Source: an uncultured Solirubrobacterales bacterium (lineage in GTDB: Bacteria > Actinomycetota > Thermoleophilia > Solirubrobacterales > 70-9). Taken from it: a DNA stretch of 64,000 bases. The DNA is taken from positions 418,578 to 482,577 of the forward strand of contig OY970377.1 in assembly GCA_963718775.1 (NCBI GenBank), given 5' to 3'. This document shows, in pieces, positions 10,561 through 57,258 of this stretch. Position 1 is the stretch's first letter; the number at the start of each line of letters is the position of its first letter. The translations under genes and the position numbers were made by a program. A model generated the notes under the pieces. It did no database searches, was not told where the DNA came from, and saw nothing but the letters and a program-made list of their open reading frames with translations.

Positions 10561-10669
10561 GAAGGTCCCGGCAGGGGTGAAGCGTCTTGTACTTTTTCGC
10601 GGCTGTCCTTCGGGGACAGCAATCTCCGCTCCTCGAAAGAGTTAAGCGAAACCCCTGCCGGGAGCTTCC
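10561..10669 (+). repeat. Hairpin repeat family A, copy A1
   Basis: GGAAGGTCCCGGCAGGGG-TGAAGCGTCTTGTACTTTTTCG-apex-CGAAAGAGTTAAGCGAAA-CCCCTGCCGGGAGCTTCC. The 3' end abuts the TGA stop (10670..10672) of the minus-strand gene. Confidence 0.9.
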
Positions 10670-11707
10670 TCAGCCGATGTAGATCGGAGTGCCGACTTCG
10701 ACCAGGTCGTAGAGCTCTTCGACGTCGGGGATCGCCATCCGCACGCAGCCGTGCGAGGCGGCCGAGCCGAGCGAGTAGGTCTCTTCGGTGCCGTGGATGC
10801 CGGCGCCTTCGTAGATCGCCATCCAGCGCGCCTTGATCGGGTTCGACGGCCCCGGCGGGATGTCCTGGCCGGCGAGGCTGCCGGCCCAGTCGGATTCGGG
10901 CACGTGCCAGGTGGGGTTTTCTTCCTTTTCCTGAATCGCGTAGAGCCCTTCTGGGGTTTCGAGCCCTTCCTGGCCGACCGCCACCGTGTAGGTCTTGGCC
11001 AGCTTCAGGTCCTTCCAGAGACGCAGCGTGAAGGTGGCGCGATCGAGGGTCAGGTAGGTCGGATACGCGGAGGCGACTTCCTTCGTCGTCACCTCGGGCT
11101 TGACCGCATGCGTACGAGCGGCGATCGTGTGGTCGGCGTCGGCATTGAGCACAGCGGCGCGCAGCTGGCGAGTCAGCAGATTGTCGCGCAGCTTGCGCCC
11201 GTTCTCCGCCGTGACGACTTCGAGGGTGTCGCCGCTCGGGTTGACCGTCGCGTCCTGCGGTTCGCGGTCGACCTCGTCGGCGACCTTGCGCACGAAGCGG
11301 TTGATCGCCGGCTGCGAGTAGGTGACGTCGGCGCCGACGTGCTCGTCGACGCTGCCGCCGGTGACGTAGCGGACGAGGCGCCCGGGTAGGCCGCCTTCGC
11401 GGCTTTCGTCGAGGGCCTCTTCGACCGCGGCGTCGACGTCGGCGTGGATCTTGAGGCTCTCGCCCGGTAGCTCCCAGCGCTCACCGTCGTAGCCGACGCG
11501 GAGCGAGTGACGCAGCGGACGCAGCAGCTGGGCCTGCACCGCCTGCTTCGCTTCGTCTTCGTCCATCCCACCGACGTCGACGCCGCCAACCGTGACACCG
11601 TCGGCGATCTTGTCCTTCTGGGTGCTGTCGTAGGCGTAGGCGGCGAAGACTCCGAGAGCCAGCAGCGCCAGCACGGCGACGATTGCGATTTGAGTCTTAC
11701 GTCCCAT
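10670..11707 (-). CDS. L,D-transpeptidase (YkuD domain) with an N-terminal membrane anchor
   Basis: Intact 345 aa. The C-terminus ...IHGTEETYSLGSAASHGCVRMAIPDVEELYDLV carries the catalytic H/C motif. Confidence 0.8.
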   Translation of the reverse strand: MGRKTQIAIVAVLALLALGVFAAYAYDSTQKDKIADGVTVGGVDVGGMDEDEAKQAVQAQLLRPLRHSLRVGYDGERWELPGESLKIHADVDAAVEEALDESREGGLPGRLVRYVTGGSVDEHVGADVTYSQPAINRFVRKVADEVDREPQDATVNPSGDTLEVVTAENGRKLRDNLLTRQLRAAVLNADADHTIAARTHAVKPEVTTKEVASAYPTYLTLDRATFTLRLWKDLKLAKTYTVAVGQEGLETPEGLYAIQEKEENPTWHVPESDWAGSLAGQDIPPGPSNPIKARWMAIYEGAGIHGTEETYSLGSAASHGCVRMAIPDVEELYDLVEVGTPIYIG

Positions 11708-11827
11708 CAGTTCTTCTCCGAAGTCATCATCGGCGCAACCGCAACTCTCCTGCGCAAAGTGTAGGCATACGGATCATTCGGCCAGAACGGTCCGATTCCC
11801 TGCAAACCGCTCTCGGCAGTGAAGCGG

Positions 11828-11996
11828 CTAGGAGGGACTGGCGAAACCCGCGTGTACGGACCGGCGAGCGCCGGACCAAGCGGGGCAAGGACGCAGGGAG
11901 GCCGAATAGCAGCGCTATTTGGCCGACCGAGGACGCCGCACCGCGCAGTGTCCGCCGCCGCCGGACGTGCGCGGGGGTTTCGCCAATCCCTCCTAG
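11828..11996. repeat. 169-nt imperfect palindrome (element C)
   Basis: Arms are CTAGGAGGGACTGGCGAAACCCGCG and CGCGGGGGTTTCGCCAATCCCTCCTAG. The apex holds a GGCCGAATAGC-AGC-GCTATTTGGCC hairpin. Lies in the divergent spacer 18 nt before the 12015 start. Confidence 0.8.
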
Positions 11997-12014
11997 GGCG
12001 GATATCGTTGCGGC

Positions 12015-12728
12015 GTGCGCTCCAAGGACGATGTCCGCAAGGAGGTCTGGAAGGCGATGGACCGCGAGGGCGTGTCCCGCTTCCCCGGCGCCGAGGGGCG
12101 AATCCCGAACTTCGCCGGGGCGAAGCTGGCCGCCGAGAAGCTCGCCGGGCACCGCCTCTGGAAGCGCGCGCGGGTGATCAAGGCCAATCCCGACTCGCCG
12201 CAGACCTACGCGCGCCGGGTCGCCCTCGAGGAGGGCAAGACCGTGATCATGGCCGTGCCGCGCCTGCGCGACCCGCATCCGTTCCGCGTCCTCGACCCGA
12301 AGAAGCTGTCCAAAGCGGCGGTCAAGGAGGCGGCGACGATCAAGGGGGCGCTCAAACACGGCCGCGTGACGGCGCTCGAAGAGCTGCCGGAGATCGACTT
12401 CGTCCTCTGCGGCTCGGTCGCCGTCAACCTCAGCGGCGCGCGGGTCGGCAAGGGCGGCGGCTACTCCGACCTCGAGTACGGCGTCCTGATCGACGCCGGC
12501 AAGATCGACAGCCACACGACCGTGGCGACGACCGTGCACCCGACCCAGGTCCTGCGCCGCCACCTGATGATGACCTCGCACGACCTGCCGGTCGACGTGA
12601 TCGCCACGCCGCGCGCCGTGATCGAGGTCGAGCGCCAGTACGAGCGCCCGCGCGGCATCCTCTGGGACCACCTGCAGCCACCGCAGATCCGCGAAATACC
12701 CATACTCGAACGTATGGGCTATGCCTGA
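12015..12728 (+). CDS. 5-formyltetrahydrofolate cyclo-ligase family protein
   Basis: Intact 237 aa with ...IPNFAGA...VIMAVPRL...GSVAVNLSGARVGKGGGYSDLEY.... Confidence 0.7.
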   Translation: MRSKDDVRKEVWKAMDREGVSRFPGAEGRIPNFAGAKLAAEKLAGHRLWKRARVIKANPDSPQTYARRVALEEGKTVIMAVPRLRDPHPFRVLDPKKLSKAAVKEAATIKGALKHGRVTALEELPEIDFVLCGSVAVNLSGARVGKGGGYSDLEYGVLIDAGKIDSHTTVATTVHPTQVLRRHLMMTSHDLPVDVIATPRAVIEVERQYERPRGILWDHLQPPQIREIPILERMGYA

Positions 12729-13593
12729 CGATTACGGCAACCCCGATCCCGAGTGGCTGGGAATCGACTGGCGGCCACGGCTGCACCGGGTCGAGCTCCC
12801 CGGCGCGACCGTCAACTACGCGGAGATCGGCGAAGGCGAGCCGATCGTCTTCATCCACGGCATCTCGGGCTCCTGGCAGAACTGGCTGGAGAACCTGCCC
12901 CACTTCGGCCGCAACCGCCGTGCGATCGCGCTTGACCTGCCCGGCTTCGGCGCCAGTCCGATGCCCTCCTGGACGATCGACATGCCCGCCTACGGCCGTC
13001 TGCTGCACGACTTCTGCGAGAAGCTCGGCATCGAGGGCGCGACCCTGGTCGGCAACTCGATGGGTGGCCTGGTCGCGGCGGAGGCGGTGCTCACTGCGCC
13101 GGAGCGCTTCGGCCGTCTGGCGCTGGTCTCCGCCGCCGGCCTGATCAACACCTGGCTGCCCCACCAGCGCGGCGTGGCCACCTCGCGCGCCTGGAGCACG
13201 TTCGGTCGCCCCTTCGGCGCCGCTGCCCGCTTCGTCGTCACCCACCCCCACGCCCGCTACGCGATGTTCCGCTTCTTCATCCGCTACCCGGGGCGGCTGC
13301 GCAAGGAGCTGCTCTGGGAGCAGATGGCCTCGGGCCTGCCGGCGCCGGGCTTCGCCGACTCGCTCGACGCGGTGATCGAATACGACGCTCGCGACCGCCT
13401 CGAAGAGATCGAGATCCCGACGATGATCGTCTGGGGGATGGACGACTGGGTGATCTCAGCCGCCGCGGCCTTGAGCTACCACCGCCGCATCCCCCACTCC
13501 CGCCTGGAGATCTTCGAGCGGACGGGACACGTGCCGCAACTGGAGCGTCCGGCCCGCTTCAACCGGGTGCTCGAGGAGTTCCTCATCAGCTGA
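12721..13593 (+). CDS. Alpha/beta-fold hydrolase
   Basis: Intact 290 aa with HGISGS, the nucleophile elbow GNSMGG, and ...GHVPQLERP. Confidence 0.8.
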   Translation: MPDDYGNPDPEWLGIDWRPRLHRVELPGATVNYAEIGEGEPIVFIHGISGSWQNWLENLPHFGRNRRAIALDLPGFGASPMPSWTIDMPAYGRLLHDFCEKLGIEGATLVGNSMGGLVAAEAVLTAPERFGRLALVSAAGLINTWLPHQRGVATSRAWSTFGRPFGAAARFVVTHPHARYAMFRFFIRYPGRLRKELLWEQMASGLPAPGFADSLDAVIEYDARDRLEEIEIPTMIVWGMDDWVISAAAALSYHRRIPHSRLEIFERTGHVPQLERPARFNRVLEEFLIS

Positions 13594-13629
13594 CGCGCTC
13601 CATCCCTCGGCTTTCAAACTCGAGCTCGT

Positions 13630-13745
13630 CTAGCGGGACTGGGCAGGGGTGAAGCGTCTTGTACTTTTTCGCGGCTTACGCTCGGGCGACAGCAATCCAG
13701 CGACCCTCGAAAAAGTTAAGCGGAACCCCTGCCCAGTCCCGCTAG
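13630..13745 (+). repeat. Hairpin repeat family A, copy A2
   Basis: Perfect 20-bp outer stem CTAGCGGGACTGGGCAGGGG / CCCCTGCCCAGTCCCGCTAG enclosing the conserved core. The 3' arm contains the ilvD stop codon (13742..13744). Confidence 0.9.
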
Positions 13746-15445
13746 CCAGTTACAGCGCCTTCGGAAGCCGAGGAGACCGTCGCCGCGTACTTGGCCATTA
13801 CGCCACGGCCGAAGGGAGATGGCGGCGACTCGTAGGCGGCGACCCGCTCTGGCGATCTCCTCGTCTGAGAGGTCGACGTCGATGCGGCGACCGTCGATGT
13901 CGACGGTGATCTGGTCGCCCTCGTGGATCGCCGCGATCGGGCCGCCCTTGGCCGCCTCGGGGGCGACGTGGCCGATCATCAGGCCGCGGGTGGCGCCGGA
14001 GAAGCGCCCGTCGGTGACCATCGCGACGCTCTCCCCGAGCCCCTCGCCGACGATCGCCGCGGTGACCTGGAGCATCTCGCGCATCCCGGGGCCGCCGACC
14101 GGCCCCTCGTTGCGGATGACGACGACGTCGCCCGGCTTGATCTGCTGGTCCTTGACGGCGCGGAAGCATTCCTCTTCGGACTCGAAGACGCGGGCTGGCC
14201 CGATCTGCTGGGTCCGCTCGGTGCCGGCGAGCTTCACCACCGCCCCTTCGGGCGCGAGGTTGCCGCCGAGGATCGCCAGGCCGCCTTCGGGCTTGAGCGG
14301 ATCGTCGAGCGGGCGCACGACTTCCTGACCGGGCGCCTCGGTCGCCTCCGCCGCCACCTCGCCGATCGTCTTGCCGGTGACGGTGATCGCGTCGTCGTGG
14401 AGGTTGCCGGATTCGGCGAGGCGCTTGAGGATCACCGGCACGCCGCCGGCCGCGTAGAGGTCGGTGGCGACGAAGCGCCCGCCCGGCTTGAGGTCGGCGA
14501 AGAGCGGCGTCGCCCGGGAGATGCGCTCGAAGTCGTCCATGGTCAGCTCGATCGTCAAGCTCGTGGGCGAGCGCGATCAGGTGCAGGACCGCGTTGGTCG
14601 ACCCGCCCGAGGCGCAGACGCAGGCGATCGCGTTCTCCAGCGAGTCGCGGGTGATCACCTTGCTCGGCCTCATGTCGTCGACCAGGACACCGAGGACCAG
14701 CTCGCCGATCCGCTCGGCGACCGTTCCCTTGTCGTCGTCTTCGGCGGGCACCATCGCCGAGCCGCCGGCGCTGATCCCAAGCGCCTCGAAGGCGCAGGCC
14801 ATCGTGTTGGCGGTGAACTGGCCGCCGCAGGCGCCGGCGCCGGGGCTGGCGACGCCCTCCAGCTCGTTCAGTTCCTCGTCGCTCATGTCGCCGGCGTTGT
14901 GGGCGCCGATCGCCTCGAAGATGTCGAGGATCGTCACGTCGCGGCCGTGCCAGTGGCCGGGAGCGATCGAGCCGCCGTAGAGGAGCGACCGACGGCACGT
15001 CGAGCCGAGCCAGCGCCATCGCGCAGCCCGGGATCGTCTTGTCGCAGGCGCAGAGGGCGACGATCGCGTCGAACTGGTAGCCGCGCGCCATCAGCTCGAT
15101 CGAGTCGGCGATCACCTCGCGGCTGATCAGCGAGGCCTTCATCCCCTGGGTGCCCATCGTGACGCCGTCGGAGACGGCGACGGTGTTGAACTCCATCGGC
15201 GTGCCGCCGGCGGCGCGTACGCCCTCTTTGACGTGCTCGGCGAGGCCGCGCAGGTGGAAGTTGCAGGGCATCGCCTCGGTCCAGGTGTTGGCGATGCCGA
15301 TCGTCGGCCGGCTGAGCGCCTCGTCGTCGAAGCCGATGCCCTTCATGTAGGCGCGCGCGTGGGCGCGGTCGGGGCCGTCGAAGACGACGCTGGAGCGAGG
15401 ACGGGGAAGCTTGGTCGTGGTGGCGCCGTTTGAGCTCATCGCCAA
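13742..15445 (-). CDS. ilvD: Dihydroxy-acid dehydratase; at least 3 frame changes
   Basis: Pieces lie on track ORFs 14555..15445, 13798..14937 and 13716..14558. The last codons [18 protein letters not shown]-stop are in another frame, ending at 13742. Confidence 0.85.
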
Positions 15446-15482
15446 AATCTACTGAGGCGGTCCAGAGGCGAGGTCGAAGACA

Positions 15483-16249
<767 letters not shown>

Positions 16250-21465: not shown

Positions 21466-22143
21466 CTACTCGGGGTCTTTTTCGAACTGCTCGGCTCGCG
21501 CCCGGCTCTGCTCGGCCCGCCAGAGCCGCACCCGCTCGTGGTCGCCGGAGAGCAGCACGTCCGGCACTCCCCAGCCCCGGTACTCGGCCGGACGGGTGTA
21601 GTGCGGGTACTCGGGCATGCCCTCGAGCAGCTGGCTGAACGACTCCTCGACTGCGCTGTGCTCGTGCCCGAGCGCCCCCGGCAGCTTGCGCATCACCACG
21701 TCGGCGAGCACCATCGCCGGCAGCTCGCCACCGGCCAGCACGTAGCGCCCGATCGAGACCTCGTCGTCGGCGAAGTGCTCGTGCACCCGCTCGTCGAACC
21801 CCTCGTAGCGCCCGCAGAGCAACGCCACGTGCGGCTCCTGCGTCAGCTCGTCGGCCAGCTCGTCGTCGAGCAACCGCCCCGTCGGCGAGAGCAGCACCAC
21901 CCGAGGCTTCTCCTCGTTCGGATAGGCGGCTTGCAGCGCCGCATCGACCACGTCGACCCGGAGGACCATCCCAGCCCCGCCCCCATACGGCGAATCGTCA
22001 ACCTGCCCGGCACTCAGCGGAGTCGTGTCGCGGTAGTTGAAGAGACGAAGCTCGTTGCCCTGCGCCAGCGCGTTCTGCACCGACCGCTGCGACCGAAACC
22101 AGTCGAACGCCTCGGGAAAGAGAGAGAAGATGTCGAGTCTCAT
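21466..22143 (-). CDS. trmD: tRNA (guanine37-N1)-methyltransferase
   Basis: Intact 225 aa with FPE.F...[13 protein letters not shown]...[13 protein letters not shown]...[16 protein letters not shown]. Confidence 0.9.
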
Positions 22144-22256
22144 AGCGGAATCCTGGTGGGGGTGAAGCGTCTTGTACTTTTTCGCGGCTCACCCTCGGGC
22201 GCCAGCGAAATTCCGCTTCTCGAAAAGTTAAGCGAAACCCCCGCCAGGATTCCGCT
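22144..22256 (+). repeat. Hairpin repeat family A, copy A3
   Basis: Arms are AGCGGAATCCTGGTGGGGG / CCCCCGCCAGGATTCCGCT around the conserved core. It starts one base after the trmD start codon (CAT at 22141..22143) and fills the KH-trmD spacer. Confidence 0.9.
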
Positions 22257-31488: not shown

Positions 31489-31601
31489 GAGGGAGTCGGG
31501 CACCCCTCCTCTCTCAACTTTTTCGCCTCCAGCGAGGCAGTTCTCGCTGAGGCATAGCGGCGAAAAAGTACAAGCCGTTCGGAGGGGTGCCCGACTCCCT
31601 C
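31489..31601 (-). repeat. Hairpin repeat subfamily B, copy B4
   Basis: Reverse complement is GAGGGAGTCGGGCACCCCTCC-GAACGGCTTGTACTTTTTCG-apex-CGAAAAAGTTGAGAGAGG-AGGGGTGCCCGACTCCCTC. Lies 27 nt upstream of the rpmF start. Confidence 0.9.
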
Positions 31602-32687: not shown

Positions 32688-32801
32688 GGAGGGACGGGCA
32701 CCCCTCCGAACGGCTTGTACTTTTTTCGGGCACCGGCCCAGGCGTCAGCCCTACCACACTACTTCGAAAAAAGTTGAGAGAGGAGGGGTGCCCGTCCCTC
32801 C
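32688..32801 (+). repeat. Hairpin repeat subfamily B, copy B5
   Basis: Perfect 20-bp outer stem GGAGGGACGGGCACCCCTCC / GGAGGGGTGCCCGTCCCTCC. The inner stem has 6 T paired to 6 A. It starts 12 nt after the yceD stop. Confidence 0.9.
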
Positions 32802-40495: not shown

Positions 40496-40605
40496 GCCGC
40501 GATGGCGGTGCCCCTCCCCTGGAGCGCGCGTCGCGCAGCTGGTTTGGGGCTCTGCTTCGAGCGTGGACACTGAGCCTCCTCGGGGAGGGGCCCCGCCATC
40601 GCGGC
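40496..40605. repeat. 110-nt long-stem hairpin (element F)
   Basis: 24-bp stem GCCGCGATGGCGGTGCCCCTCCCC / GGGGAGGGGCCCCGCCATCGCGGC with 1 mismatch and a 62-nt interior. It starts 11 nt after the MMPL stop. Confidence 0.8.
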
Positions 40606-44318: not shown

Positions 44319-45505
44319 TCCCGGAACCGTGCCGTGATCAAAGCATCCATACCAACGGCCTTAACCGTGCTGCTCAATGCGGTTTCTCGCGCGGGTGGCG
44401 CAGATGCGGGGGGGCCGAGAACGGAGGCCCCGCCCCCGCCCGCAGATCCCCCCGCAGCTGCGACGGGCCCCGTGCGCCAATCACTTCCGAGCAGGACGGG
44501 GGCGACGAAGGTCCTTGCTTCGTCTAGCTGGTCGGCGATCTGGAAGGCGCTGGCCAGGGTCGGGCCGCCCTCGAGGAAGAGGCTCGTGATGCCGCGGCGG
44601 CCCAGATCGGCAAGGGCTGCCTCGATGCCGTCAGCGACGAGGATCTCGGCGCCGGCCTCACGAAGGGCTGATGCATCAGCTTCGGGTGAGACGACGACGA
44701 GCACCGGCGAGTCGTCGAGGGTTCGGAGCAGCTGCGAATCGAGCGGCAGACGGGCCTGGCGGTCGAAGACGACGCGAACCGGCTGCCGCGAGCTCGTTCC
44801 GGTGCGCTTTATGCTCGCCTGGGGTGCATAAGGCGCACCGGAAGGCTCTGGGCGGGCGGTTAGGAGGGGGTCGTCGGTTAGGACGGTGTCGATGCCGACG
44901 GCGATCGCGTCGGATTCGGCGCGCCAGCGGTGGACCAGCTCACGGCTGCGCTCGCCGGAGATCCAGGGCGAGTCGCCGGGCGGGGCGCTGGTGCGGCCGT
45001 CGAGCGACATCGCCAGCTTCAGGGTGACCAGCGGCAGGCCCGTGCGCGCATGCTTGCGGAAGGGCTGGTTGAGCAGGCGGGCCGCGGTGGCCTCCTCGCC
45101 TGCGGCGAGCTCGACCTCGACGCCGCCGTCGCGCAGGATGCCGGGCCCGCGCCCGGCCGCCTTCTCGCTCGGATCATCGGAAGCGATCACGACCCGGGCG
45201 ATTCCCGCCTCAAGGATCGCCTCGGTGCAGGGCGGTTGCCGCCCCGTATGCGCACAGGGCTCCAACGTCACGTACATCGTCGCCCCCGCCGGGTCCTCTC
45301 CACGCCTCTCGCAATCCGCCAGCGCCGCCCGCTCCGCATGCAGGCCACCCAGCTCGGCATGAAACCCCTCGCCGATCACCTCGCCGCCTCGCACCACAAC
45401 AGCTCCGACAAGAGGATTAGGACTGACCCGACCGCGCCCACCCTCCGCCAGCTCAAGCGCCCGCGCGAGATGCGACCGATCCGTGCCTGTCAGTTGCGCA
45501 TTCAT
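44312..45505 (-). CDS. ribD: Bifunctional riboflavin deaminase/reductase RibD, carrying two in-frame repeat insertions
   Basis: C-terminal part of chimeric track ORF 44312..46282, from MNAQLTGTDRSHLARALELAEGG...HAERAAL...TLEPCAHTGRQPPC.... The ATG is at 45505. Confidence 0.85.
   Translation of the reverse strand: MNAQLTGTDRSHLARALELAEGGRGRVSPNPLVGAVVVRGGEVIGEGFHAELGGLHAERAALADCERRGEDPAGATMYVTLEPCAHTGRQPPCTEAILEAGIARVVIASDDPSEKAAGRGPGILRDGGVEVELAAGEEATAARLLNQPFRKHARTGLPLVTLKLAMSLDGRTSAPPGDSPWISGERSRELVHRWRAESDAIAVGIDTVLTDDPLLTARPEPSGAPYAPQASIKRTGTSSRQPVRVVFDRQARLPLDSQLLRTLDDSPVLVVVSPEADASALREAGAEILVADGIEAALADLGRRGITSLFLEGGPTLASAFQIADQLDEARTFVAPVLLGSDWRTGPVAAAGGSAGGGGASVLGPPASAPPARETALSSTVKAVGMDALITARFREW
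44384..44455 (+). repeat. Repeat family R3, copy a (inside the ribD 3' coding region)
   Basis: TTCTCGCGCGGGTGGCGCAGATGCGGGGGGGCCGAGAACGGAGGCC...CCCGCAGATCCCC, shared with 45566..45670. Translated as ..GGSAGGGGASVLGPPASAPPARE... Confidence 0.7.
44799..44841 (-). repeat. Short palindromic element R1 inside the ribD coding sequence
   Basis: CCGGTGCGCTTTATGC-TCGCCTGGGGT-GCATAAGGCGCACCGG: a 16-bp stem with one G-T pair. The 21 nt GGTGCATAAGGCGCACCGGAA are identical to 51594..51614. Confidence 0.85.
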
Positions 45506-48085: not shown

Positions 48086-49884
48086 ATGGGAGGACACGAC
48101 GCCGAGCTGATCCTCGTCGCCGGCGCCCTGCTCGCCGCCGGCATCCTCGGCGCCCTGCTCGCCGATCGCATCCGCATCCCGGGACTGCTGCTCTTCCTCG
48201 GCCTGGGCATGCTTGCCGGCTCGGAGGGAATCGGCGGAATCGAGTTCGACGACGTCGAGCTGGCCCGGACCCTGGGCACGATCGCGCTCGTCCTCATCCT
48301 CTTCGAGGGCGGTCTGACGGCGGGCTGGTCGGAGATCCGCCCGGTGCTCGGCACGGCCGCCTCGCTGGCGACGATCGGGACCGCGGTAACCGCCTGCACG
48401 GCCGGGCTCGTCGCCCACTGGATCTTCGGCATCAGCGTGCTGGAAGGGATGATCGTCGGCGCCGCGATCGCCGCCACCGACTCGGCGGCGATCTTCGCCG
48501 TGCTGCGTCGCTCGACCCTGAAAAAGACGGCTGGCGCGGACGCTGGAGGGTGAGTCGGGGATGAACGACCCGGTCGCCCTGCTGCTCGTGATCGGCTTCA
48601 TCGAATGGATCCAGGAGCCCGGCTTCGGGCTCGCCGACATGGCCGGACTGCTCGCCCTCAAACTGGCGATCGGCGCCGTGATCGGCCTGGCGCTGGGCCG
48701 CCTCGCCGTGATCGCCCTCGACCGGGCGCGGCTGCCGACCGACGGGATCTACCCGGTCGCGACGATCGCGATCGCCGGGCTCGCCTTCGGCCTGGCCGAG
48801 GTCGCCCACGGCTCGGGATTCCTCGCCGTCTACCTCACCGCCCTCGCCCTCGGCTCGACCCGCATCCCGGCGCGGCGCACGATCGTCGCCTTCCACGAGG
48901 GCGTCGGCTGGGTCGCCCAGATCGGCCTCTTCATCCTGCTCGGCCTGCTCGTCTTCCCCAGCACGCTCGGCGACGTCGCCTGGGAAAGCCTCGCCCTCTC
49001 GGCCGTGCTGATCGTCCTCGCCCGCCCCCTCGCCGCCTTCGTCGCCACTGCCCTCTCCCCGCTCGACGTCCGCGAGCGGGCGATGCTGGGCTGGGCTGGG
49101 CTGCGCGGCGCGACGCCGATCTGGCTCGCCACCTTTCCGGTCGTCGCCGGCGTGGGCAGCGGCGAAGAGCTGTTCGCGATCGTCTTCTTCGTCGTCGTCA
49201 CCTCGACCCTGATCCAGGGGGCGAGCTTCGAGCCGCTGGCCAGCCGCCTCGGCCTGACCACCGACGAGCCGGCGCTGCCGCGGCGCCTGCTCGAGTCGGG
49301 GCGAATCCGCCGCATGGGCGGCGACGTCGTCTCCTACCGACTGCGCCCGGGGGCGGCGGCGGCCGGTCACCTGGTCCGCGAACTCGGCCTGCCGCGCGAG
49401 GCGCTGGTCAACGTGATCGTCCGCGACGGACACGCGATCCCGCCGCGCGGCTCGACCGAGGTGCGCGAGGGCGACGAGCTGCACATCCTCGTCCGCGGCG
49501 AGCTGCGCGAGGAGGTCGAGGAGCTGACCAAGCGCTGGCACGATGGGCCGATCGGCATTCCGACCCCGGAGCGCCTGCCGCCGCGCGGCGCGCCACAGAT
49601 CTTCTCGGTGGGGCCGGCGATCGAGATCGAGGACCCCTCCGCGCCTGGCGCCGTCGACGGGATCGCGGTGGTCGCCATCCTGCGCAGCCGCCGCGACCAC
49701 CCCAGCGCCCTGGTCGCGCTTGCCGACAGTCGCTACGCCCTGGTCACCGAGACCGTGGTGGCACTCGGCGATCGTCGCTCAGTGGCCCGTTGGTGCGAGC
49801 GCCGCGCCGAACGAGCCGGCAGACGACCCAGCGGAGCGCGCCTGGTGGCAGGAGGTAATTGGTGCGCTGATGGCGCGGGGTTGA
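48086..49884 (+). CDS. CPA1-type K+/Na+:H+ antiporter with a C-terminal TrkA-C domain; frameshifted
   Basis: 48086..48553 holds the N-terminal transmembranes, 48561..50663 (first ~430 aa: ...GESGMNDPVALLL..., TrkA-C ...GDELHILV...) the middle, and 49543..49884 the last codons ...AERAWWQEVIGALMARG. Confidence 0.8.
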
Positions 49885-49885
49885 G

Positions 49886-49995
49886 GTCTGCCCCGGCAGG
49901 GACTCCGCATAACTTTTTCGAGAGGCGGGGATTGCTGGCGCCCGATGGTGCGGCCGCGAAAAAGTACAAGACGCTCCGCCCCCGCCGGGGCGACC
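49886..49995 (-). repeat. Hairpin repeat family A, copy A6
   Basis: Reverse complement is GGTCGCCCCGGCGGGGG-CGGAGCGTCTTGTACTTTTTCG-apex-CGAAAAAGTTATGCGGAGT-CCCTGCCGGGGCAGACC. It fills the spacer between the antiporter stop (49884) and the rpe stop (49996). Confidence 0.9.
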
Positions 49996-50685
49996 TCAAG
50001 CAGCGCCGGCCGCGGCGACGATCTCTGCGTAGGCGGAAGCGGGGTCGTCGGTGTCGAAGATGGCTGAGCCGGCGACGAAGAGGGATGCACCGGCGTCCGC
50101 GACCGTGCCGGCGGTCTTGGTGTCGATGCCGCCGTCGACCTCGATCTTGGCCTTGCCGGCGCCGCGACTTCAGGCGTGAGACCTTGTCGGGTGAGCTCTC
50201 GATGAAAGCCTGGCCGCCCCAGCCGGGGTTGACGGTCATGCAAAGGACGATGTCGGCGAGGTCGCGCAGCTCGGCGAGGGTCTCGACCGGGGTGCCGGGG
50301 TTGAGCGCGATCCCCGCCAGACAGCCGAGCTCACGGATCGCGGCAAGGGTGCGGTTGGCGTGCGGCGTCGCCTCCTCGATGGAAGGTGATCGAGTCGGCG
50401 CCGGCCTCGGCGAAGGCCTCGATCTGGCGTTCGGGCTGCTCGATCATCAGGTGGACGTCGAGGACGCCGCCGGCATCGTGGACCTGGTCGGCGATCGACG
50501 CGGCGACCAGCGGCCCGATCGTGATCGGCGGCACGAAATGCCCGTCCATCACGTCGAAGTGGATGACCCGCGCGCCGGCATCCATCACCTCGGCGATCTG
50601 CGCGCCCAGCCGGCGAGCAGTCGGCCGAGAGGATCGAAGGCGCGACGCGCGGCGAAGCGATGACCTCCTGCATCCGCTCGCTCAT
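49996..50685 (-). CDS. rpe: Ribulose-phosphate 3-epimerase; at least 3 frame changes
   Basis: Pieces lie on 50236..50781 (..VAPSILSAD), 50331..50588 (..HFDVMDGHFVPPITIGP...DVHLM...) and 49733..50239 (MTVNPGWGGQAF..). The C-terminus ..VDGGI...VAGSAIF.. is in a further frame. Confidence 0.85.
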
Positions 50686-50933
50686 ACCGGCCTCATCATC
50701 GAGTCCCCGCAGGTTTGACAGGTCATGTCCTCGGTGGTGCTCATCCGCGCGATCGTCTGGTGCTCGCCGCAGTTGGGGCACTGCGAGACGAGCTCGAAGC
50801 GGCGCAGACAGTACACGCAGCGAAAGCGGCCCGGCAGCTGCGTCGGGCGCAGCCAGGGCTCACCGCAACCAGGGCAGGCCGCCCGGCGCAGGACGCTCTC
50901 GCTCTCTCCCGCCTCACTCATCGCCAGCATCAT
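50682..50933 (-). CDS. Small zinc-ribbon protein with four CxxC pairs; hypothetical
   Basis: 83 aa with CPGCG...CVYC...CPNCG...CQTCG. It overlaps the rsmB stop region and the rpe start by a few nt, which suggests translational coupling. Confidence 0.5.
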   Translation of the reverse strand: MMLAMSEAGESESVLRRAACPGCGEPWLRPTQLPGRFRCVYCLRRFELVSQCPNCGEHQTIARMSTTEDMTCQTCGDSMMRPV

Positions 50934-52251
50934 CGCGCCTCAGGCGGCAGATGAAGAAGCCGGTGGTGCGATCGCGATCCGGACGGAGCTGAAAACGCTC
51001 TCCGCCGTCGACTTGCTCCTCGTTCTCCCGGGCGCTGATCGTGCAGGTCGAGTAGACGAGCGTGCCGCCCGGTCGGAGCGCCGCCCTCGCCCTTTGGAGG
51101 AGTTGGGCCTGGACCTCGACCAGGCGGTCGATGGTGGCCGGCGACTTGCGCCAGCGCGCGTCGGGGCGCGAGGCGAGGGCGCCCAGGTCGGAGCAGGGGG
51201 CGTCGAGGAGGACCCGGTCGAAGCCGGGGGCCATGCCCGGTTGCGCGGCATCGGTCTCGATCACGGTGACGCTGCGCAGGCCGAGGCGACGAGCCTGATC
51301 CGCGACTTCGGCGGCACGCTCGGGGTCGTTCTCCACCGAGATCACCTCGCCGCGGTCGCCCATCCGAGCGGCGATCTGGCCGGTCTTGATGCCGGGGCCG
51401 GCGCAGAGATCGAGGATGTGCTCGCCGGGCTGGGGGTCGAGGACCTCGACCACCGCGGCCGATCCCCGGCTCTGCGGAGTCAGCTCGCCAGCAGCGATCA
51501 GCTCCGGCACGAGGTCGCCGGTCCGCCCCTCGATCGCGATCATCTCCGGCAGCGCCAGCACCCCCTCGCTTGCAGTGCGCCTTTTGCTCCCGGTGGGTGC
51601 ATAAGGCGCACCGGAACCAGCGGCGCGGGCGTCGATGCCGGCGTCGCGCAGCTTGGCGAGGATGGAGTCGCGGTCGGTGCGCAGGGTGTTGACGCGGAAG
51701 GCGACCTCGGGCGGCTCGTTGCAGGCGGCGAGCAGGGAGCGGGCCTGCTCGGGCCCCAGCTCGTCCCACCACATCTGCGCCAGCCAGAGCGGCGCCGAGT
51801 GGGCGACGGCGGCTGCCTGCGGGGTCGAGTCGTCGCCGAGCAGCGACTCGACCAACGAGGCGCGCTCGCGGGTCGCCCGGCGCAGGACGGCGTTGACCAG
51901 GCCGGCGGCATGCGCGGCGCCGGCCTGCTTGACCAGCTCCACCGCCTGGTCGACCGCGGCGTGGTCGGGGGTCCCGTCGGCGAAGAGCAGCTCGTACATG
52001 CCCAGCCGCAAGGCTCCCAGCAGCGGCGGGTCGAGATCGCGCAGCGGCCGGTCGACCAGCTGCGAGAGCGCCGCGTCGATCGTGCCGCGGCGCTGCACCG
52101 TGCCGTAGGCGAGCCGCTGCGCCTGGGCCCGCTCGCGAGCGTCGAGCGCACGCTCGTCGGCGGCTTCGCGGAAGGCGCGCTCGGTGTGGGCCTCTTCCTC
52201 GAAGGTCGCCCGGATCGTCTCGTAGGCGAGGGTGCGAGCCGGAGCAATCAT
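50914..52251 (-). CDS. rsmB: 16S rRNA (cytosine967-C5)-methyltransferase RsmB, carrying the R2 in-frame insertion
   Basis: Intact 445 aa with a NusB-like N-terminal domain, then ..LDLCAGPGIKT...DRVLLDAPCSDLG...GGTLVYSTCT. Confidence 0.9.
   Translation of the reverse strand: MIAPARTLAYETIRATFEEEAHTERAFREAADERALDARERAQAQRLAYGTVQRRGTIDAALSQLVDRPLRDLDPPLLGALRLGMYELLFADGTPDHAAVDQAVELVKQAGAAHAAGLVNAVLRRATRERASLVESLLGDDSTPQAAAVAHSAPLWLAQMWWDELGPEQARSLLAACNEPPEVAFRVNTLRTDRDSILAKLRDAGIDARAAGSGAPYAPTGSKRRTASEGVLALPEMIAIEGRTGDLVPELIAAGELTPQSRGSAAVVEVLDPQPGEHILDLCAGPGIKTGQIAARMGDRGEVISVENDPERAAEVADQARRLGLRSVTVIETDAAQPGMAPGFDRVLLDAPCSDLGALASRPDARWRKSPATIDRLVEVQAQLLQRARAALRPGGTLVYSTCTISARENEEQVDGGERFQLRPDRDRTTGFFICRLRRDDAGDE
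51575..51614 (-). repeat. Short palindromic element R2 inside the rsmB coding sequence
   Basis: GTGCGCCTTTTGC-TCCCGGTGGGT-GCATAAGGCGCACCGG. Homologous to R1 and translated in the same element frame (SGAPYAPTGSKRRTAS). Confidence 0.85.
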
Positions 52252-52262
52252 GACAATGGATC

Positions 52263-52318
52263 GCGTTCAAATCGCCACGGATTCGAACCCCCGGAAGTCA
52301 CCGTGTCGATTTGAACGC
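52263..52318 (-). repeat. Hairpin repeat family D, copy D1
   Basis: GCGTTCAAATCGCCACGG-ATTCGAACCCCCGGAAGTCA-CCGTGTCGATTTGAACGC. It ends one base before the fmt stop codon (52319..52321). Confidence 0.8.
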
Positions 52319-53226
52319 TCACAGTTTCGGCAGCTGGTGGCCGCGCAGGTAGGCGTCTGCCGCCATCGACTTGCCACCGGCCGGCTGCACCACCTCGAGC
52401 CGCAGGGCGCCCCGGCCGCAGCCGAGCAGCAGCGCCCCCCACTCGGCGCGCACCTCGCCGGCCTTGACGCCGACATCGACCGCGCGCGCTCGCCGCACCC
52501 CCAGCCGCTCGCCGCCGCTGGTCTCCAGATAGGCGCCAACGTGCGGAGTCAGCGCACGGACGATGCGGGCCAGCTCGACCGCCGGCCGCTTGGGGTCGAG
52601 GCGGCGCTCCAGCGAGGCGATCTTCTCCGCGTAGGTGGCCTCCGCATCGTCCTGCTCGACGAAATCGAGTCGCCCCTCGGCCAGCAGGTCGAATGCCCGC
52701 ACCAGCAGCTCGCCGCCGAGCGTGGCCAGACTGCGCGGCAAGCGCTTCGAAGTCTTCCTCGGAGCCGATCGGCAGCTCCTCGCGGAGAGCGACCGGCCCG
52801 GAGTCGAGGCCCTCGGTCAGCTTCATCACGCAGACGCCCGGTGCGCTCGTCGCCGGCCATGATCGCCCGCTCGATCGGCGCCGCGCCGCGCCAGCGGGGC
52901 AGCAGCGATGGGTGGATGTTGAGCATCGGCCACTCCGAGAGCAGCGGCTCGCGGATCATCTGGCCGAAGGCGCAGACCGCGAGCGCCTGTGGCTGGACGG
53001 CGCGGATCTGCTCGAGCGCCGCCTCGTCGTTGACGTTCTCGGCCTGCAGCAGGTCGATCCCCAGCTCGGCGGCGGCCTCGGCGGCGGGTGGCGCCTGGGT
53101 GCGGCGCCCGCGGCCCTTGGGGCGATCGGGGGGCGTGACGACCAGCAGCGGCCTGTGCGCCGACTCGGCCAGCTGGCGCAGCACCGCCGCGGCGAACTCC
53201 GAGGTGCCGAGGTAGACCGTCCTCAC
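52319..53226 (-). CDS. fmt: Methionyl-tRNA formyltransferase; 2 frame changes
   Basis: 52549..53625 (VRTVYLGTSEFAA...NIHPSLLPRWRGAAPIERAIMAGDERTG), then 52248..52829, then 52319..52741 (C-terminal domain). Confidence 0.85.
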
Positions 53227-53242
53227 GCGTCGCACTGTGGGC

Positions 53243-53294
53243 GCGTCAATCGACACGGTGACTGCCGGGTATTCGAGTCCGTGGCGATTGACGT
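53243..53294 (+). repeat. Hairpin repeat family D, copy D2
   Basis: GCGTCAATCGACACGG-TGACTGCCGGGTATTCGAGT-CCGTGGCGATTGACGT. It is the inverted counterpart of D1 on the other side of fmt. Confidence 0.8.
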
Positions 53295-53324
53295 GTTCAC
53301 GCTGTGCTCTTCGGCTCACGATGC

Positions 53325-53936
53325 TCAGCGTCGGCATCGTCCTGCTCGTCCAGCGGCGGGCTGTAGCTGCTCGCCCTCGCGCAGGGCCCGCAGGGCGCCC
53401 TTGCGCTGCGCGCGCGGCGCGCGGTCGAGGATCAGCACGCCGTCGAGATGGTCGAGCTCGTGCTGGAGCACTCGCGCCTCCAGGCCCGAGGCCTCGATCT
53501 GCACCGGCTCGCCGTCGACGTCCAGCCCGCTGAAGCGGGCATGCAGGGGGCGCTCGACGTCCATCGAGACCCGCGGCAGGCTGAGGCAGCCCTCCTCGGC
53601 GACGACGATCTCGTCGGAGAGCCACTCGACCTCCGGGTTGACCAGCGCCGTCGGCTCGCTGTCGGGGCCCGCCTGGAAGACGAGCAGGCGGCGCAGCACG
53701 CCGACCTGGGTCGCGGCCAGGCCGACGCCCATGGCGCCGCGCATGATCCCGATCATGCGCTCTACCTCGGCGCGCAGCTCGGGGCCGAACTCGCCGACCG
53801 GCGAGGCCTTGCTCTTCAGCACCGGATCGCCGAACTTGACCACCTGCGCAAGCGCCGCTTCGCGGCGCTCCAGCAGCTCGGCTTCGAGCCCGCTCTCGTC
53901 GCGCTCGTCGGTTTCAGTTTCGGCGTGCTCGCTCAC
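53325..53936 (-). CDS. def: Peptide deformylase; extreme C-terminus possibly frame-shifted
   Basis: GVGLAATQVG...EEGCLSLP...QHELDHLDG metal-binding motifs. Has an acidic N-terminal extension. Confidence 0.9.
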   Translation of the reverse strand: MSEHAETETDERDESGLEAELLERREAALAQVVKFGDPVLKSKASPVGEFGPELRAEVERMIGIMRGAMGVGLAATQVGVLRRLLVFQAGPDSEPTALVNPEVEWLSDEIVVAEEGCLSLPRVSMDVERPLHARFSGLDVDGEPVQIEASGLEARVLQHELDHLDGVLILDRAPRAQRKGALRALREGEQLQPAAGRAGRCRR

Positions 53937-53968
53937 AGATCAATTCTATGGACCGCCCCCTCCGGGGC

Positions 53969-54013
53969 TGAGTTCGCCTTTACTCGCGCTATACGCGAAG
54001 AAACGGGAACTCA
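53969..54013 (+). repeat. Short hairpin repeat family E, copy E2
   Basis: CTGAGTTCGCCTTTACTCGCGCTATACGCGAAGAAACGGGAACTCA. Lies between the def start and the priA stop. Confidence 0.55.
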
Positions 54014-54024
54014 CGGTCGCAGTC

Positions 54025-56214
54025 TTACTGGGGGTCAACGTCGACGGAGATCGCGACGTCGCGCAGGGAGCGGTCGGTGGCGAGGCGATCGACCGTCTCG
54101 CGCACGACGCCGACCGTCGCGTCGCGCTCGCCGGTCTTGAGCAGCAGGCGGCGGCGGTGGCGGTTGCGGACGCGGAACATCGGCGCCGGGCCGAGCAGGT
54201 CGGTGTCGTCGGGAAGGACCGGCATGAGGGCCTGGGCGAGGTCGAGCGGAGACCCGGTCGAGGCGAACCTCGGACTCGGCCTTGAGGACGATCCTGATCA
54301 GGTGCGAGAAGGGCGGGTAGCGCAGCGCCTGGCGGCGCTCGATCTCCTCGCCGAGGAAGGCGGCCGCGTCGTGACGACCGGCGTGGACGATGCTGGGCGC
54401 GGTCGGCGCCAGGGTCTGGACGATCACCTCGCCGCCGGCGGCGCCGCGACCGCTGCGACCGGCGAGCTGGGCGACCATCGCGAAGGTCCGCTCGGCGGCG
54501 CGGAAGTCGGGGAAGCGCAGGGTGGCGTCGGCGTCGAGGATCGCGCTCAGCGTCACCTCGGGGAAGTCGTGCCCCTTGGCGACCATCTGGGTGCCGACGA
54601 GGACGGCGCTCTCGGCCTCGCCGAAGGCGGCGAGGATGCGGGCATGGGCGCCACGGCCGCTGGCCGTGTCGGCGTCGAGGCGGAAGACCGGCATCGGCGC
54701 CAGCCGCTCGGCCAGCAGCGCCTCGACCTGCTCGGTGCCGACGCCGGCGCGCGAGAGCGTGGTCGAGTCGCAATCGCCGCAGGCGCGCGGCAGCGGCTCG
54801 GAATGGGCGCAGTGATGGCAGACGAGGCGGCCGCTGTGGCGGTGGACGATCAGCGAGACGTCGCAGTTGGGACAGTCCCAGTGACGCCCGCAGGACCGGC
54901 AGGTGAGCCAGGGCGCGAAGCCGCGCCGGTTGACCATCACGATCGCCTTCGCCCCGGCCTCGCGGACGCGGCCGAGCGCCTCCCAGGTGGCGGGATGCAG
55001 CGGGCCGGAGCGGGGATCGGCCTCGCTCATGTCGAGCACCCGCACCGGCGGCATCGGGCGGCCGTCGACGCGGTGGGGCAGCTCCAGCGGGGCAGCTCCA
55101 GCCACGACTCGGGCCGCGGCGTCGCCGTGCCGGCGACGAGCACGGCGCCGCACTCGGCGGCACGGCGCCGGGCCACCGTGCGGGCGTCGTAACAGGGGTC
55201 GCCCTCCTGCTTGTAGGAGGCGTCGTGCTCCTCGTCGATCACGATCAGGCCGAGGTCCTGCAGCGGCGCGAAGACAGCCGAGCGGGGGCCGACGCAGACG
55301 CTCGCTTCGCCGCCGCGCAGGCGGCGCCATTCGTCGTAGCGCTCGCCGTCGGAGAGGGCCGAGTGCAGGACGGCGAAACGGTCGCCGAGCCGCGCGCGGA
55401 AACGCGCCACCGCCTGCGGCGCCAGGCCGATCTCCGGGACGAGGACGATCGCGCCCTTGCCTCGCGCCAGCGCCGCCTCGACCGCGGCCAGGTAGACCTC
55501 GGTCTTGCCCGAGCCGGTGACGCCGTGGAGGAGCAGCTCGCGAGGGGCGCCTGCTTCGCCATCGAGCGCCGCAACGATCCCCTCGACCGCCGCGGTCTGC
55601 TCGGGGAGCAGCTCGGGGCGCCCGCCGCGGGCGCCGACCTCGGGGTGGCTGGAACGCCGCCGCACCCGCGAGCTGCGGGTGGCGATCAGGCCGCGCTCCT
55701 CGAGGCGGCGCAGCACGGCGCGATCGGCGCCAACCGCCGCGGCCAGCTCGCCGGCCGACATCTCCCCCGCCCGCAACGCCTCCAGCACGGCGCGCTGCTT
55801 GACCCCGAGGCGCTCTCCGCCCCTCAGCGCCTCCTCGCCGGCGGCGGCGATCTCGGCGCGCAGCTCGAGGCGTGAGCGCACCCGCTGTCCTGCGGCGCCG
55901 GTTCCCGGTGGCAGCACCAGCTGCAGGCCGCGCGAGGGCGTCGAGCAGTACTCGCGGGCGATCCAGAGGCCGAGCCGGACCAGCTCCGCCGGCGTCCCCG
56001 CCTCGAGCGCCTCGAGCGGCTCGGCCAGCCGCTCCGGCGGCAGCTCGGAGGCCTCGGCAAGCTCGACGACGACGCCGAGCACGCGCTGACGGCCGAAGGG
56101 AATGCGGACGACGCTGCCCACCTCGAGATCGGCCATCGCCTCAGGCAAGCGGTAGTCGAAGGGCCCGCGCAGGGCACGGGCGGTGGTGAGCGGCTCAACC
56201 TTCGCTATCGACAC
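54025..56214 (-). CDS. priA: Primosomal protein N' (PriA helicase); at least 3 frame changes
   Basis: 55027..56274 (N-terminus and GVTGSGKTEVYL Walker A), 54035..55330 (Cys-rich zinc region CRSCGRHWDCPNCDVSL..HCAH...CGDC, helicase C) and 54025..54225 (C-terminus). Confidence 0.85.
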
Positions 56215-56263
56215 TGGGTCACGGTATGGAGGAGTGCGGACGGCGTGGGTATGCTGAGCGGCG

Positions 56264-56773
56264 ATGGCGCTCAATCTCAGTCCGGGAGAGCAGGTGATCT
56301 TCCAGGGCCATCCTTCCTGGCGGGCGATCCTCGGCTTCTACCTGAAGGGCATCCTCGTCGCGGCGATCGTCGGCGTACTCGCCAGGCTCTTCGACGTGAG
56401 CAGCGCCACGGTCTTCCTGATCGTCCTCGTGATCGTCGGCCTTACCGTCCTGATCGGCTTCGTCAAGCGGATCGCGACGACCTACACGATCACCGACCGC
56501 CGCCTCAACATCCGCCGCGGCATCATCTCTCGCGAGGTTCAGGAGACCCGCCTCGAGCGGGTCCAGAACGTCAACTACCAGCAGTCGGTCTACCAGCGCC
56601 TGATGCAGATCGGCGACGTCGATTTCGACACGGCAGCGGGCGACGACTACAACTTCGTCTTCGCCGGGGTGGCTGACCCCCAAGACGTCGTACACAGGGT
56701 CGACCAGGCGACGGGAACGGGTACTGCCGGGACACACGGACTAGGCGAGCCTCAACCGCCAACTACTGGCTGA
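56264..56773 (+). CDS. Membrane protein with a bacterial PH (bPH_2 / YdbS-like) domain
   Basis: Intact 169 aa: two transmembrane segments followed by ..YTITDRRLNIRRGIISREVQETRLERVQNVNYQQSVYQRLMQIGDVDF... Confidence 0.7.
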   Translation: MALNLSPGEQVIFQGHPSWRAILGFYLKGILVAAIVGVLARLFDVSSATVFLIVLVIVGLTVLIGFVKRIATTYTITDRRLNIRRGIISREVQETRLERVQNVNYQQSVYQRLMQIGDVDFDTAAGDDYNFVFAGVADPQDVVHRVDQATGTGTAGTHGLGEPQPPTTG

Positions 56774-56785
56774 CTTTTGCGGGAG

Positions 56786-56900
56786 GGCGGGATCCGGGTG
56801 GGGGTTTCGCTTAACTTTTTCGAGGATCGTCGATTGCTGACGCCTCGGGCGAGCTGCCGCGAAAAAGTACAAGACGCTTCACCCCCACCCGGATCCCGCC
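56786..56900 (-). repeat. Hairpin repeat family A, copy A7
   Basis: Perfect 19-bp outer stem GGCGGGATCCGGGTGGGGG / CCCCCACCCGGATCCCGCC around the conserved core, in reverse orientation. Confidence 0.9.
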
Positions 56901-57141
56901 AGCGGCGCCCGGACGTCAGTCAGTAGCAAGCGCCTCCAGCAGTCCCAGGCGAAGCCAGTCGCCACCAGCTCACAAACTGCAGCGGCCGGGAGCCGTGGTT
57001 GGGAGCTGGATTGAGCCCCCTCGCCTTTCCTCCTGAGCTTCTTCACCTCGAACGCTGCGGAACTGCGGTGGGTGACTAGACCTTGCAGATGCTCGCGATC
57101 TGACGCTTAAAGCTGAAGCGCTCTACCGAAACGGCTCCGTT

Positions 57142-57258
57142 GGCGGGGACGGGGTAGGGGTGAAACGTCTTGTACTTTTTGGCGGAAGCTCAATCGAGGC
57201 GCCAGCTATCCGGCGATCCTCCAAAAAGTTAAGTGGAACCCCTGCCCCCGTCCCCGCC
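57142..57258 (+). repeat. Hairpin repeat family A, copy A8
   Basis: GGCGGGGACGGGGTAGGGG-TGAAACGTCTTGTACTTTTTGG-apex-CCAAAAAGTTAAGTGGAA-CCCCTGCCCCCGTCCCCGCC. The inner stem carries a compensated CG-to-GG/CC change. The 3' arm touches the metK stop codon. Confidence 0.9.

Follow-up and report, generated by a model that had tools for sequence, protein, structure and literature searches.

What kind of element is the hairpin of about 113 nt that recurs eight times in a 64,000-nt stretch of an uncultured Solirubrobacterales bacterium (contig OY970377.1 of assembly GCA_963718775.1, positions 418,578 to 482,577; the whole stretch is called the window below, and its G+C content is about 70%)? An earlier note on this DNA had listed the eight copies, had likened them to repetitive extragenic palindromes (REPs) and bacterial interspersed mosaic elements (BIMEs), Correia elements, miniature inverted-repeat transposable elements (MITEs), or mycobacterial interspersed repetitive units (MIRUs), and had recognized no described family. 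In this study the repeat was followed into related genomes. Its asymmetric core is conserved across the order, it folds into a long hairpin with covarying arms, it lies at gene ends, and it is occasionally gained and then long retained. With somewhat better than even confidence, we regard it as a new family of palindromic intergenic repeats of the class formed by REPs, REPINs (REP doublets forming hairpins), and MITEs, gained at gene ends, retained across species, and probably read by a protein through the core.

A paired repeat with an asymmetric core

The 12-mer CTTGTACTTTTT occurs eight times in the 64-kb window against 0.12 occurrences expected, and none of 100 shuffles reached eight; its partner GAAAAAGTTRAG was found at the same eight places. 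Alignment of these regions gave 31 invariant columns, mostly in two blocks. A covariance model built from the eight window copies (R1) matched these copies only, and a second model built from 82 copies (R2; the eight together with 74 from loci of relatives), run over the whole window with filters off, scored them at 82-120 bits, with the next-best forward match at 18 bits. Since no scores fell between these values, the window holds exactly eight copies and none that is decayed. The places given in the earlier note were thus borne out, and so were the details that it had read from the arms: those of A7 and A3 (Table 1) differ at positions 1, 6, and 11, each difference being matched in the 3' arm, with one further T.G wobble in A3, and the variants listed for A8 and B5 in Table 1 were seen in the alignment as it had described them. 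All eight copies fold as long irregular hairpins (-55 to -79 kcal/mol), with z-scores of -6.9 to -10.8 in seven of them and -2.6 in A6. Five copies lie on the plus strand and three on the minus strand, 0.4-17 kb apart.

For relatives, one genome per species was scanned for the exact 15-mer CGKCTTGTACTTTTT of the 5' core. At least 120 loci matched, about 67 of them belonging to Solirubrobacterales/Thermoleophilia metagenome-assembled genomes and the remainder being AT-rich chance matches. R1 recovered 74 strong full-length copies from the 67 loci among the matches listed. The family is specific to Solirubrobacterales/Thermoleophilia and, among these matches, present in dozens of their genomes, so that the further copies which the earlier note had proposed to seek in relatives were found in number. 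Three subfamilies (A, B, and C) co-occur within genomes; the only features that C has in common with A and B are the CGTC motif, the T5/A5 stem, and the GC-rich arms.

The structure was evaluated on the alignment of all 82 copies, with 500 shuffles and a sliding 3' partner as controls. Standard pairs filled 96% of the alignment cells versus 74-75% after shuffling, none of the 500 shuffles reached any observed measure, and pairing fell to 38-58% when the 3' partner was slid by 1-3 columns. The covariation suspected from the eight copies is therefore far above both controls. From its base, the fold begins with a 20-bp outer stem, free in sequence yet always paired: changes on both sides were seen at all 20 pairs, and 97.5% of cells were paired. 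G.U accounted for 2.4% of cells in this stem, a frequency close to that of other mismatches. The stem is followed by a 3x3 purine loop (GGA/GRA, or tandem G.A in subfamily B), and above it stand an R-Y pair, a CGT bulge, CUU/AAG, and a GU/U irregularity with a conserved G.U. The helix AC-U5 / A5-GU comes next, then two covarying pairs, and last a variable apex, mostly ending in GC-GNCA-GC. The inner core, GRAR-CGT-CTTGTAC-T5 ... A5-GTTAAG-Y-GRA, is almost invariant; the exception in the inner helix is the two apex-proximal pairs, which covary among C-G, U-A, and G-C without wobbles. The asymmetry of the core is strictly conserved, and one strand is therefore distinguishable from the other. Conservation peaks in the interior, the outermost 8 bp being the least conserved part, complementary but variable, and apex identity is 0.64 within genomes versus 0.58 between genomes.

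The R-Y pair deserves separate mention. R25-Y156 is G-C in 45 copies, A-T in 30, and A-A in seven (the subfamily B copies), and never G-T or A-C; the association is strong (Fisher p ~1e-21), and neighboring variable positions are uncorrelated with the pair. Because of this two-state covariation and the uncorrelated neighbors, it was read as a true pair and replaced the register G27-Y156 proposed by RNAalifold. Kink-turn, sarcin-ricin, and hairpin-ribozyme loop motifs, compared by eye only, did not fit in polarity or sequence.

The family has no counterpart in Rfam: across the window nothing exceeded the gathering thresholds except one tRNA, and at E<=10 the copies matched just plant miRNA-precursor hairpin models, far below threshold and regarded as noise. 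No description of such repeats was found in the literature on Solirubrobacterales, Conexibacter, and Thermoleophilia. The family is undescribed as far as was checked in these two sources, and the finding itself is real and statistically solid. A viral or plasmid origin was rejected, as the 15-mer occurred in 120 viral contigs and the paired 3' core in none of them. Coding potential was likewise rejected: the apex varies in length and sequence, and open reading frames (ORFs) through the copies are spurious. No sigma-70-like promoter was found within the element, by scan or by eye.

Table 1. Copies of the repeat in the window, and the subfamilies with their cores (copies of subfamily C by locus)
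Feature	Subfamily or core	Position	Strand	R1 (bits)	R2 (bits)	Fold (kcal/mol)	z-score
A1	A	10559..10670	+	108.8	101.6	-62.9	-6.9
A2	A	13630..13745	+	126.3	120.2	-73.8	-8.9
A3	A	22144..22256	+	109.4			
B4	B (CGGCTTGTAC / GTTGAGAGAGG)	31489..31601	-	90.9		-78.7	-10.8
B5	B, T6/A6	32688..32801	+	92.7			
A6	A	49883..49997	-	99.8	95.8		
A7	A	56786..56900	-	120.7		-72.8	-9.2
A8	A, TTTTTGG/CCAAAAA	57142..57258	+	108.7			
Core of A	CGTCTTGTAC						
Core of B	CGGCTTGTAC						
Core of C	GGCGTCCTG-T5...A5-CCCAGCA	in loci only, none in window					
Copies of C	C	L040 3486-3588; L003 3880-3993; L113 954-1072					

Placement, gain, and retention at gene ends

The direction of flanking genes was taken from codon-position G+C, and orthologous sites were collapsed to 56 distinct sites. 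These comprised 20 convergent, 27 tandem (the element being antisense to transcription in 19 and sense in eight), and six divergent sites, and at 40 of 53 the 3' end of the element faced the end of a gene. Where a gene ran into the 3' end, its stop codon overlapped the last 0-2 nt in 21 of 57 cases and lay at +4 to +21 nt in another 21; where a gene ran into the 5' end, its stop overlapped the hairpin end in 18 of 43. Stop triplets stand at the base on both sides in 24 copies, and the palindrome therefore often reads TGAGG...CCTCA or TAGGG...CCCTA. At tandem sites, downstream genes begin 0-40 nt from the hairpin base. The same gene-end placement is known for REPs (PMC3733652), and ribosome stalling has been reported for REPs <16 nt from a stop codon (as cited in PMC12306157).

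Three of the window sites were found empty in relatives, which is the presence/absence polymorphism that the earlier note had suggested looking for. The A3 site is empty in ten metagenome contigs (L121-L130) with a 100% identical KH protein, where the KH-trmD spacer ranges from a 4-nt overlap to 7 nt, and the window at this place reads TGA-GGTCGGTA-(113 nt)-ATG. The B5 site is empty in L028, a locus syntenic with 30-34 kb of the window, which reads TAG-GCG-CTA with the convergent stops 3 nt apart. In a soil contig syntenic around metK (L131), 18 nt separate the metK stop from the convergent one, and the 490 extra nt of the window are A8, a spacer of 241 nt, and A7. These empty sites show that the element can be gained, and always into very short spacers at gene ends. 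T and A are enriched just beyond both ends of the element (30-42% per position), and much of this is owed to stop codons.

Once present, the element is commonly retained for long. Among the 82 copies there were about 36 orthologous pairs between species, in about 19 site groups with flank identities of 72-90%, and all pairs had the same orientation but one, B4 versus L028, in which the core is flipped between the same flanks. Across these pairs the 5' core diverged by 7.5% and the 3' core by 7.4%, and the flanking genes by 12% at codon positions 1 and 2 and 29% at the third. Apex identity was near random (0.5-0.65). In the outer stem, 462 pairs were unchanged, 184 showed double Watson-Crick changes, 21 were wobbles, and 28 were mismatches; identity of the outer 8 nt of the arm was 0.51 in orthologous versus 0.41 in unrelated copies. 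Both states of the R-Y pair occurred in 9 of the 19 orthologous site groups. It is possible that arms and apex evolve in place at or above the synonymous rate with concerted restoration of pairing, or that elements are replaced at fixed sites.

The window copies illustrate the placement. The neighbors named in the earlier note (L,D-transpeptidase, dihydroxy-acid dehydratase, TrmD, and MetK) agree with Pfam, and the ilvD and rpe stops that it had placed at the copies were seen in the hairpin bases when the frames were read. A1 is flanked by the genes of an L,D-transpeptidase and an XerC/D-type recombinase, both on the minus strand (Pfam), and the L,D-transpeptidase stop (TCA) overlaps its base. 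A2 stands between an alpha/beta hydrolase gene (+) and the convergent ilvD (-); its palindrome CTAGCGGG...CCCGCTAG takes in the ilvD stop (CTAG, 13742-13745), the C-terminus of the protein being read as ...SEGAVTG. A3 lies within the rpsP-KH-trmD-rplS operon, 8 nt from the stop of the KH protein and 0 nt from the start codon of trmD, which ends at 22143, one base before the element, as the earlier note had claimed for one copy. B5 is placed between a yceD-like gene (+) and a convergent gene of 161 aa (-). The palindrome of A6, read directly, extends to 49881-49999 (TTGAGGTC...GACCTCAA), with TGA at its left and the rpe stop TCA (49996-49998) at its right. A7 and A8 form a pair with their 5' ends facing; the 3' end of A7 is 12 nt from the stop of a bPH_2-domain gene (+), and that of A8 overlaps the metK stop (CTA, 57258-57260).

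Several further observations concern these neighborhoods. Within the window the essential gene ilvD (13746-15445) changes frame once and rpe (49996-50700), also essential, twice; most likely these are indel errors of long-read assembly rather than signs of pseudogenes, and ORF-based coordinates in the window are therefore unreliable. The 241-nt spacer between A7 and A8 (56901-57141) is lower in G+C than its surroundings; no convincing ORF, promoter-like site, Rfam match, or match in any fetched locus was found for it, the last of which rules it out as a conserved unit. The recombinase beside A1 (9640-10521, minus strand) is a tyrosine recombinase of 293 aa, the only such enzyme seen, encoded 38 nt downstream of that copy; it scores near the XerC/XerD equivalog models and is probably the housekeeping Xer, and no evidence of a link between it and the repeat was seen. 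At one copy in a relative (L098, 777-892), a gene with a SEC-C motif end (...CWCGSGKKYKKCHGA) stops exactly at the hairpin base, and the KKYKK of its product is encoded by DNA (AAAAAGTACAAGA) that matches 13 nt of the antisense core exactly, possibly by coincidence. In the orthologous loci L024 (4649-4972) and L052 (7323-7612), the spacers between paired copies are mutually homologous with codon-like substitutions, a pattern suggestive of a small gene, or the remnant of one, between two copies.

Other hairpins were also seen in the window. One of 110 nt (40496-40605) has 24-nt arms that are 96% complementary and resemble those of subfamily B (GGTGCCCCTCCCC / GGGGAGGGGCC); it is missing the T5/A5 core, scores 13 bits with R2, and is perhaps a relative of the repeat, either decayed or distinct. 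A second, smaller hairpin repeat is about 47 nt long, bears no relation to the main family, and has two copies (44797-44843 and 51570-51616), which have GGGTGCATAAGGCGCACCGGAA and its complement in common. A near-perfect palindrome of 62 nt (4788-4849; two 31-nt arms, 81% complementary, with no spacer) is found where the G+C content is lower, beside the only tRNA gene of the window (4916-4989, minus strand).

Competing explanations

If the repeat is an element of the REP/REPIN-MITE class, as favored here, a conserved protein acting in trans would read the folded single strand and recognize it by the invariant asymmetric core. This predicted protein could be an enzyme that moves the element, as the REP-associated tyrosine transposase (RAYT) does for REPs, or a host factor. 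In mRNA the hairpin would act like a stop-proximal REP, blocking 3' exonucleases, hindering terminating ribosomes, and being read through; such behavior is probable because the base abuts stop codons and is transcribed through.

Several results weigh against this explanation. No consistent target duplication and no shared direct repeat was found in the three filled/empty comparisons (a TA duplication would fit A3, but neither B5 nor A7/A8). There are no near-identical copies within a genome, contrary to what recent bursts would leave. A purely selfish element is not expected to keep its core conserved at old sites, as it is here, and the termini are the least conserved part of the repeat, unlike the conserved terminal inverted repeats of MITEs. 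No partner transposase or RAYT was seen, Y1 transposase being present in 0 of 20 ORFs scanned beside copies. No half-elements flanking an ORF were found in 500 kb of loci; a parent insertion sequence (IS) with the two halves as its ends was rejected, as no separated halves occurred there. The only transposase between two copies, a 309-aa DDE enzyme, belongs to an IS1595-family IS (L038, 1336-2647), which is ruled out as autonomous parent by its own terminal repeats (GGAGCTAAGCGGGTACGC...TAGGCAGCTA), unrelated to the hairpin; extra solo ends lie beside this IS, and in the orthologous locus L015 the IS is missing and just one hairpin copy is present. Moreover, the conservation of the 5' core in the loci is partly by construction, because the loci were collected by an exact 15-mer from it, a bias that leaves the 3' core, the pairing, and the window copies and their census unaffected.

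The decisive form may be RNA or DNA, with pointers both ways. In the first alternative, the repeat would be a cis-acting structured RNA of the host, in 3'-untranslated or intercistronic positions, with loops (GGA/GRA purine loop, CGU bulge, and GNCA tip) that bind a specific RNA-binding protein or RNase, this binding setting mRNA processing, decay, or translational coupling. The copies are indeed in transcribed positions beside stops and starts; at shared sites the core is more conserved than the non-synonymous sites of its neighbors, and window scores are bimodal with decayed copies absent. Several signs also point to the sense strand as the RNA: the purine-rich loops and the conserved G.U are found on one strand only, subfamily B has a U31.G153 wobble, the outer stem contains 39 G.U versus 21 A.C, and the sense RNA folds better than the antisense by 3.2 kcal/mol on average and in 58 of the 82 copies. 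However, orientation relative to transcription is not fixed, both orientations occur side by side, and the strand with the purine loops is the one rarer in mRNA (eight sense versus 19 antisense at tandem sites). G.U is rare in the outer stem (the 2.4% given above), and three insertion polymorphisms with hundreds of inferred copies would be atypical for a regulatory RNA. We consider this alternative unlikely.

A related thought is that the repeat, rather than being a decaying mobile element, is a structured module maintained by the host in hundreds of copies per genome, the core of which (purine loop, R-Y pair, CGT bulge, and GNCA tip) is read by a conserved putative protein. This is doubtful; if true, it would imply either a new system of mobilization or domestication that has nothing to do with RAYTs, or a novel ribonucleoprotein or processing signal at gene ends throughout a major order of soil Actinobacteria.

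The second alternative is a site acting at the DNA level, as a cruciform or folded single strand bound by a tyrosine recombinase (Xer/integron), a topoisomerase or gyrase, or a nucleoid protein. Binding of gyrase or topoisomerase has been reported for BIMEs, and in folded attC sites and IS608 ends extrahelical bases give strand choice. Both orientations occur within 8 kb and in the window, as one would expect if both strands play a part. Wobbles are few and nearly all of the covariation is Watson-Crick, the bulged bases on one arm resemble the extrahelical bases of attC and IS608 ends, and at one orthologous site (B4 versus L028) the core is inverted while the flanks are the same. In 75 of 82 copies the 3' core GTTAAGY agrees with GTTRRRY, the R' consensus of attC, a match expected at about 7% by chance over the conserved region (estimate); however, its 5' partner, R-cgt-CTT-gt-AC, is not RYYYAAC but RYYYAAC interrupted twice, by CGT and GT. 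Moreover, the copies are scattered among housekeeping genes with no array beside an integrase, the bias toward gene 3' ends (40 of 53) and the abutment of stops suggest a link to transcription or translation, and the XerC/D gene beside A1 scores near housekeeping equivalog models. A DNA-level site seems rather improbable on this balance.

The stability and GC-richness of the hairpins directly past stop codons, and the enrichment of convergent pairs (20 of 56 sites), would suit a repeated intrinsic terminator, possibly bidirectional. This is nevertheless very improbable: no T-run follows the hairpin on either strand, the T5 stands 5' of the apex and is paired with A5, the reverse of a bidirectional terminator, downstream starts are only 0-40 nt away at tandem sites, and a generic terminator needs no invariant asymmetric core. 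A3 lies in an essential operon with the trmD start at its base and no room for a promoter, and it is therefore not an efficient terminator.

That the palindrome is kept perfect by intrastrand templated repair (quasipalindrome correction) alone, without function or selection, is highly improbable and already fails for the core, where the bulges, G.T pair, and asymmetric loops would be erased and yet are invariant across the order, the sequence is conserved beyond pairing, and the R-Y pair is restricted to a purine on the 5' arm; for the outer stem, however, the caveat of the earlier note that such repair could mimic covariation may still apply, given 184 double versus 49 single changes in orthologous copies, change at or above that of synonymous sites (outer 8-nt identity 0.51 against the random baseline of 0.41), and a palindrome that often runs into stop codons on both sides.

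Comparison with known classes of elements

Comparison with known systems returns the argument to the REP/REPIN-MITE class. A REP unit is an imperfect palindrome of 20-40 nt with a GTAG or CGTC head, and a REPIN consists of two units in inverted orientation. Like these, the repeat is a high-copy extragenic palindrome, REPINs being about 110 nt when doubled, with two conserved inverted halves around a less conserved spacer; like these, it lies between convergent or tandem genes, within about 20 nt of stops (here mostly -2 to +21 nt from the 3' end), and is retained vertically for long. The tetranucleotides CGTC and GTAG both occur in its 5' half. However, CGTC is here a bulge within a long hairpin, and the two halves differ in sequence and carry conserved bulges and loops. 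A REP doublet in the strict sense was rejected, as neither half (arm + GRARCGTCTTGTACTTTTT; AAAAAGTTAAGYGRAA + arm) has its own palindrome and pairing takes the whole element. Both its taxon (Thermoleophilia) and its sequence are new for such repeats. A partner protein, if found, would tell whether REP-like systems whose helper is inherited vertically occur beyond Proteobacteria.

The likeness to MITEs and to the Correia elements of Neisseria is found in the length (about 100-150 nt), the non-coding and dispersed nature, the hairpin, the co-transcription with neighboring genes, and the insertion polymorphism between relatives, A3, B5, and A7+A8 being missing from syntenic relatives. In contrast to MITEs, the three comparisons showed no consistent target duplication, stop codons confounding the enrichment of TA at the flanks; no IS with matching ends that could be its parent was found within the limited search space, and the copies are old and diverged rather than products of recent bursts. 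The strongly constrained interior, with ends and apex that drift, is the reverse of the usual MITE pattern. Of the likenesses drawn in the earlier note, those to REP/BIME, Correia, and MITE elements were thus supported as a class by the checks that it had proposed. The likeness to MIRUs did not hold. MIRUs are tandem direct repeats of 40-100 bp in operon spacers, with small ORFs overlapping flanking stop or start codons; they do not fit because the present copies are not tandem direct repeats but single inverted-repeat hairpins outside tandem arrays, whose variable apex length leaves no conserved frame.

Sites that are recombined as folded single strands (integron attC, CTX phage attP, and IS608 ends) resemble the repeat in having structure conserved above sequence. 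The attC-type sites are also imperfect hairpins of 60-140 nt with extrahelical bases on one arm and with ORF stops in or beside them; unlike attC, the repeat has a 20-bp GC-rich helix outside the conserved boxes. An integron attC array was rejected, since the copies are dispersed in both orientations in housekeeping surroundings with no adjacent integron integrase, and so was the strict dependence on the replication strand typical of IS200/IS605, both orientations being found within single 8-kb loci and in the window. With intrinsic terminators, including the repeated motifs of Actinobacteria, the repeat has in common a GC-rich hairpin just past stop codons; it differs in having no 3' U-tract, in its conserved asymmetric core, and in occurring within an operon.

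These comparisons have practical consequences. Solirubrobacterales are soil bacteria, abundant and for the most part uncultured, whose genomes are compact; the repeat offers a ready marker for studies of insertion and turnover in their metagenome-assembled genomes. The stop-abutting hairpins could provide a testable link with gene expression in a phylum of high G+C content that has few classical terminators, and in annotation they could be mistaken for terminators or small RNA genes. In sum, the repeat belongs to a well-known class rather than to a new kind of system, and what sets it apart within that class is the unusual conservation of its core across species.

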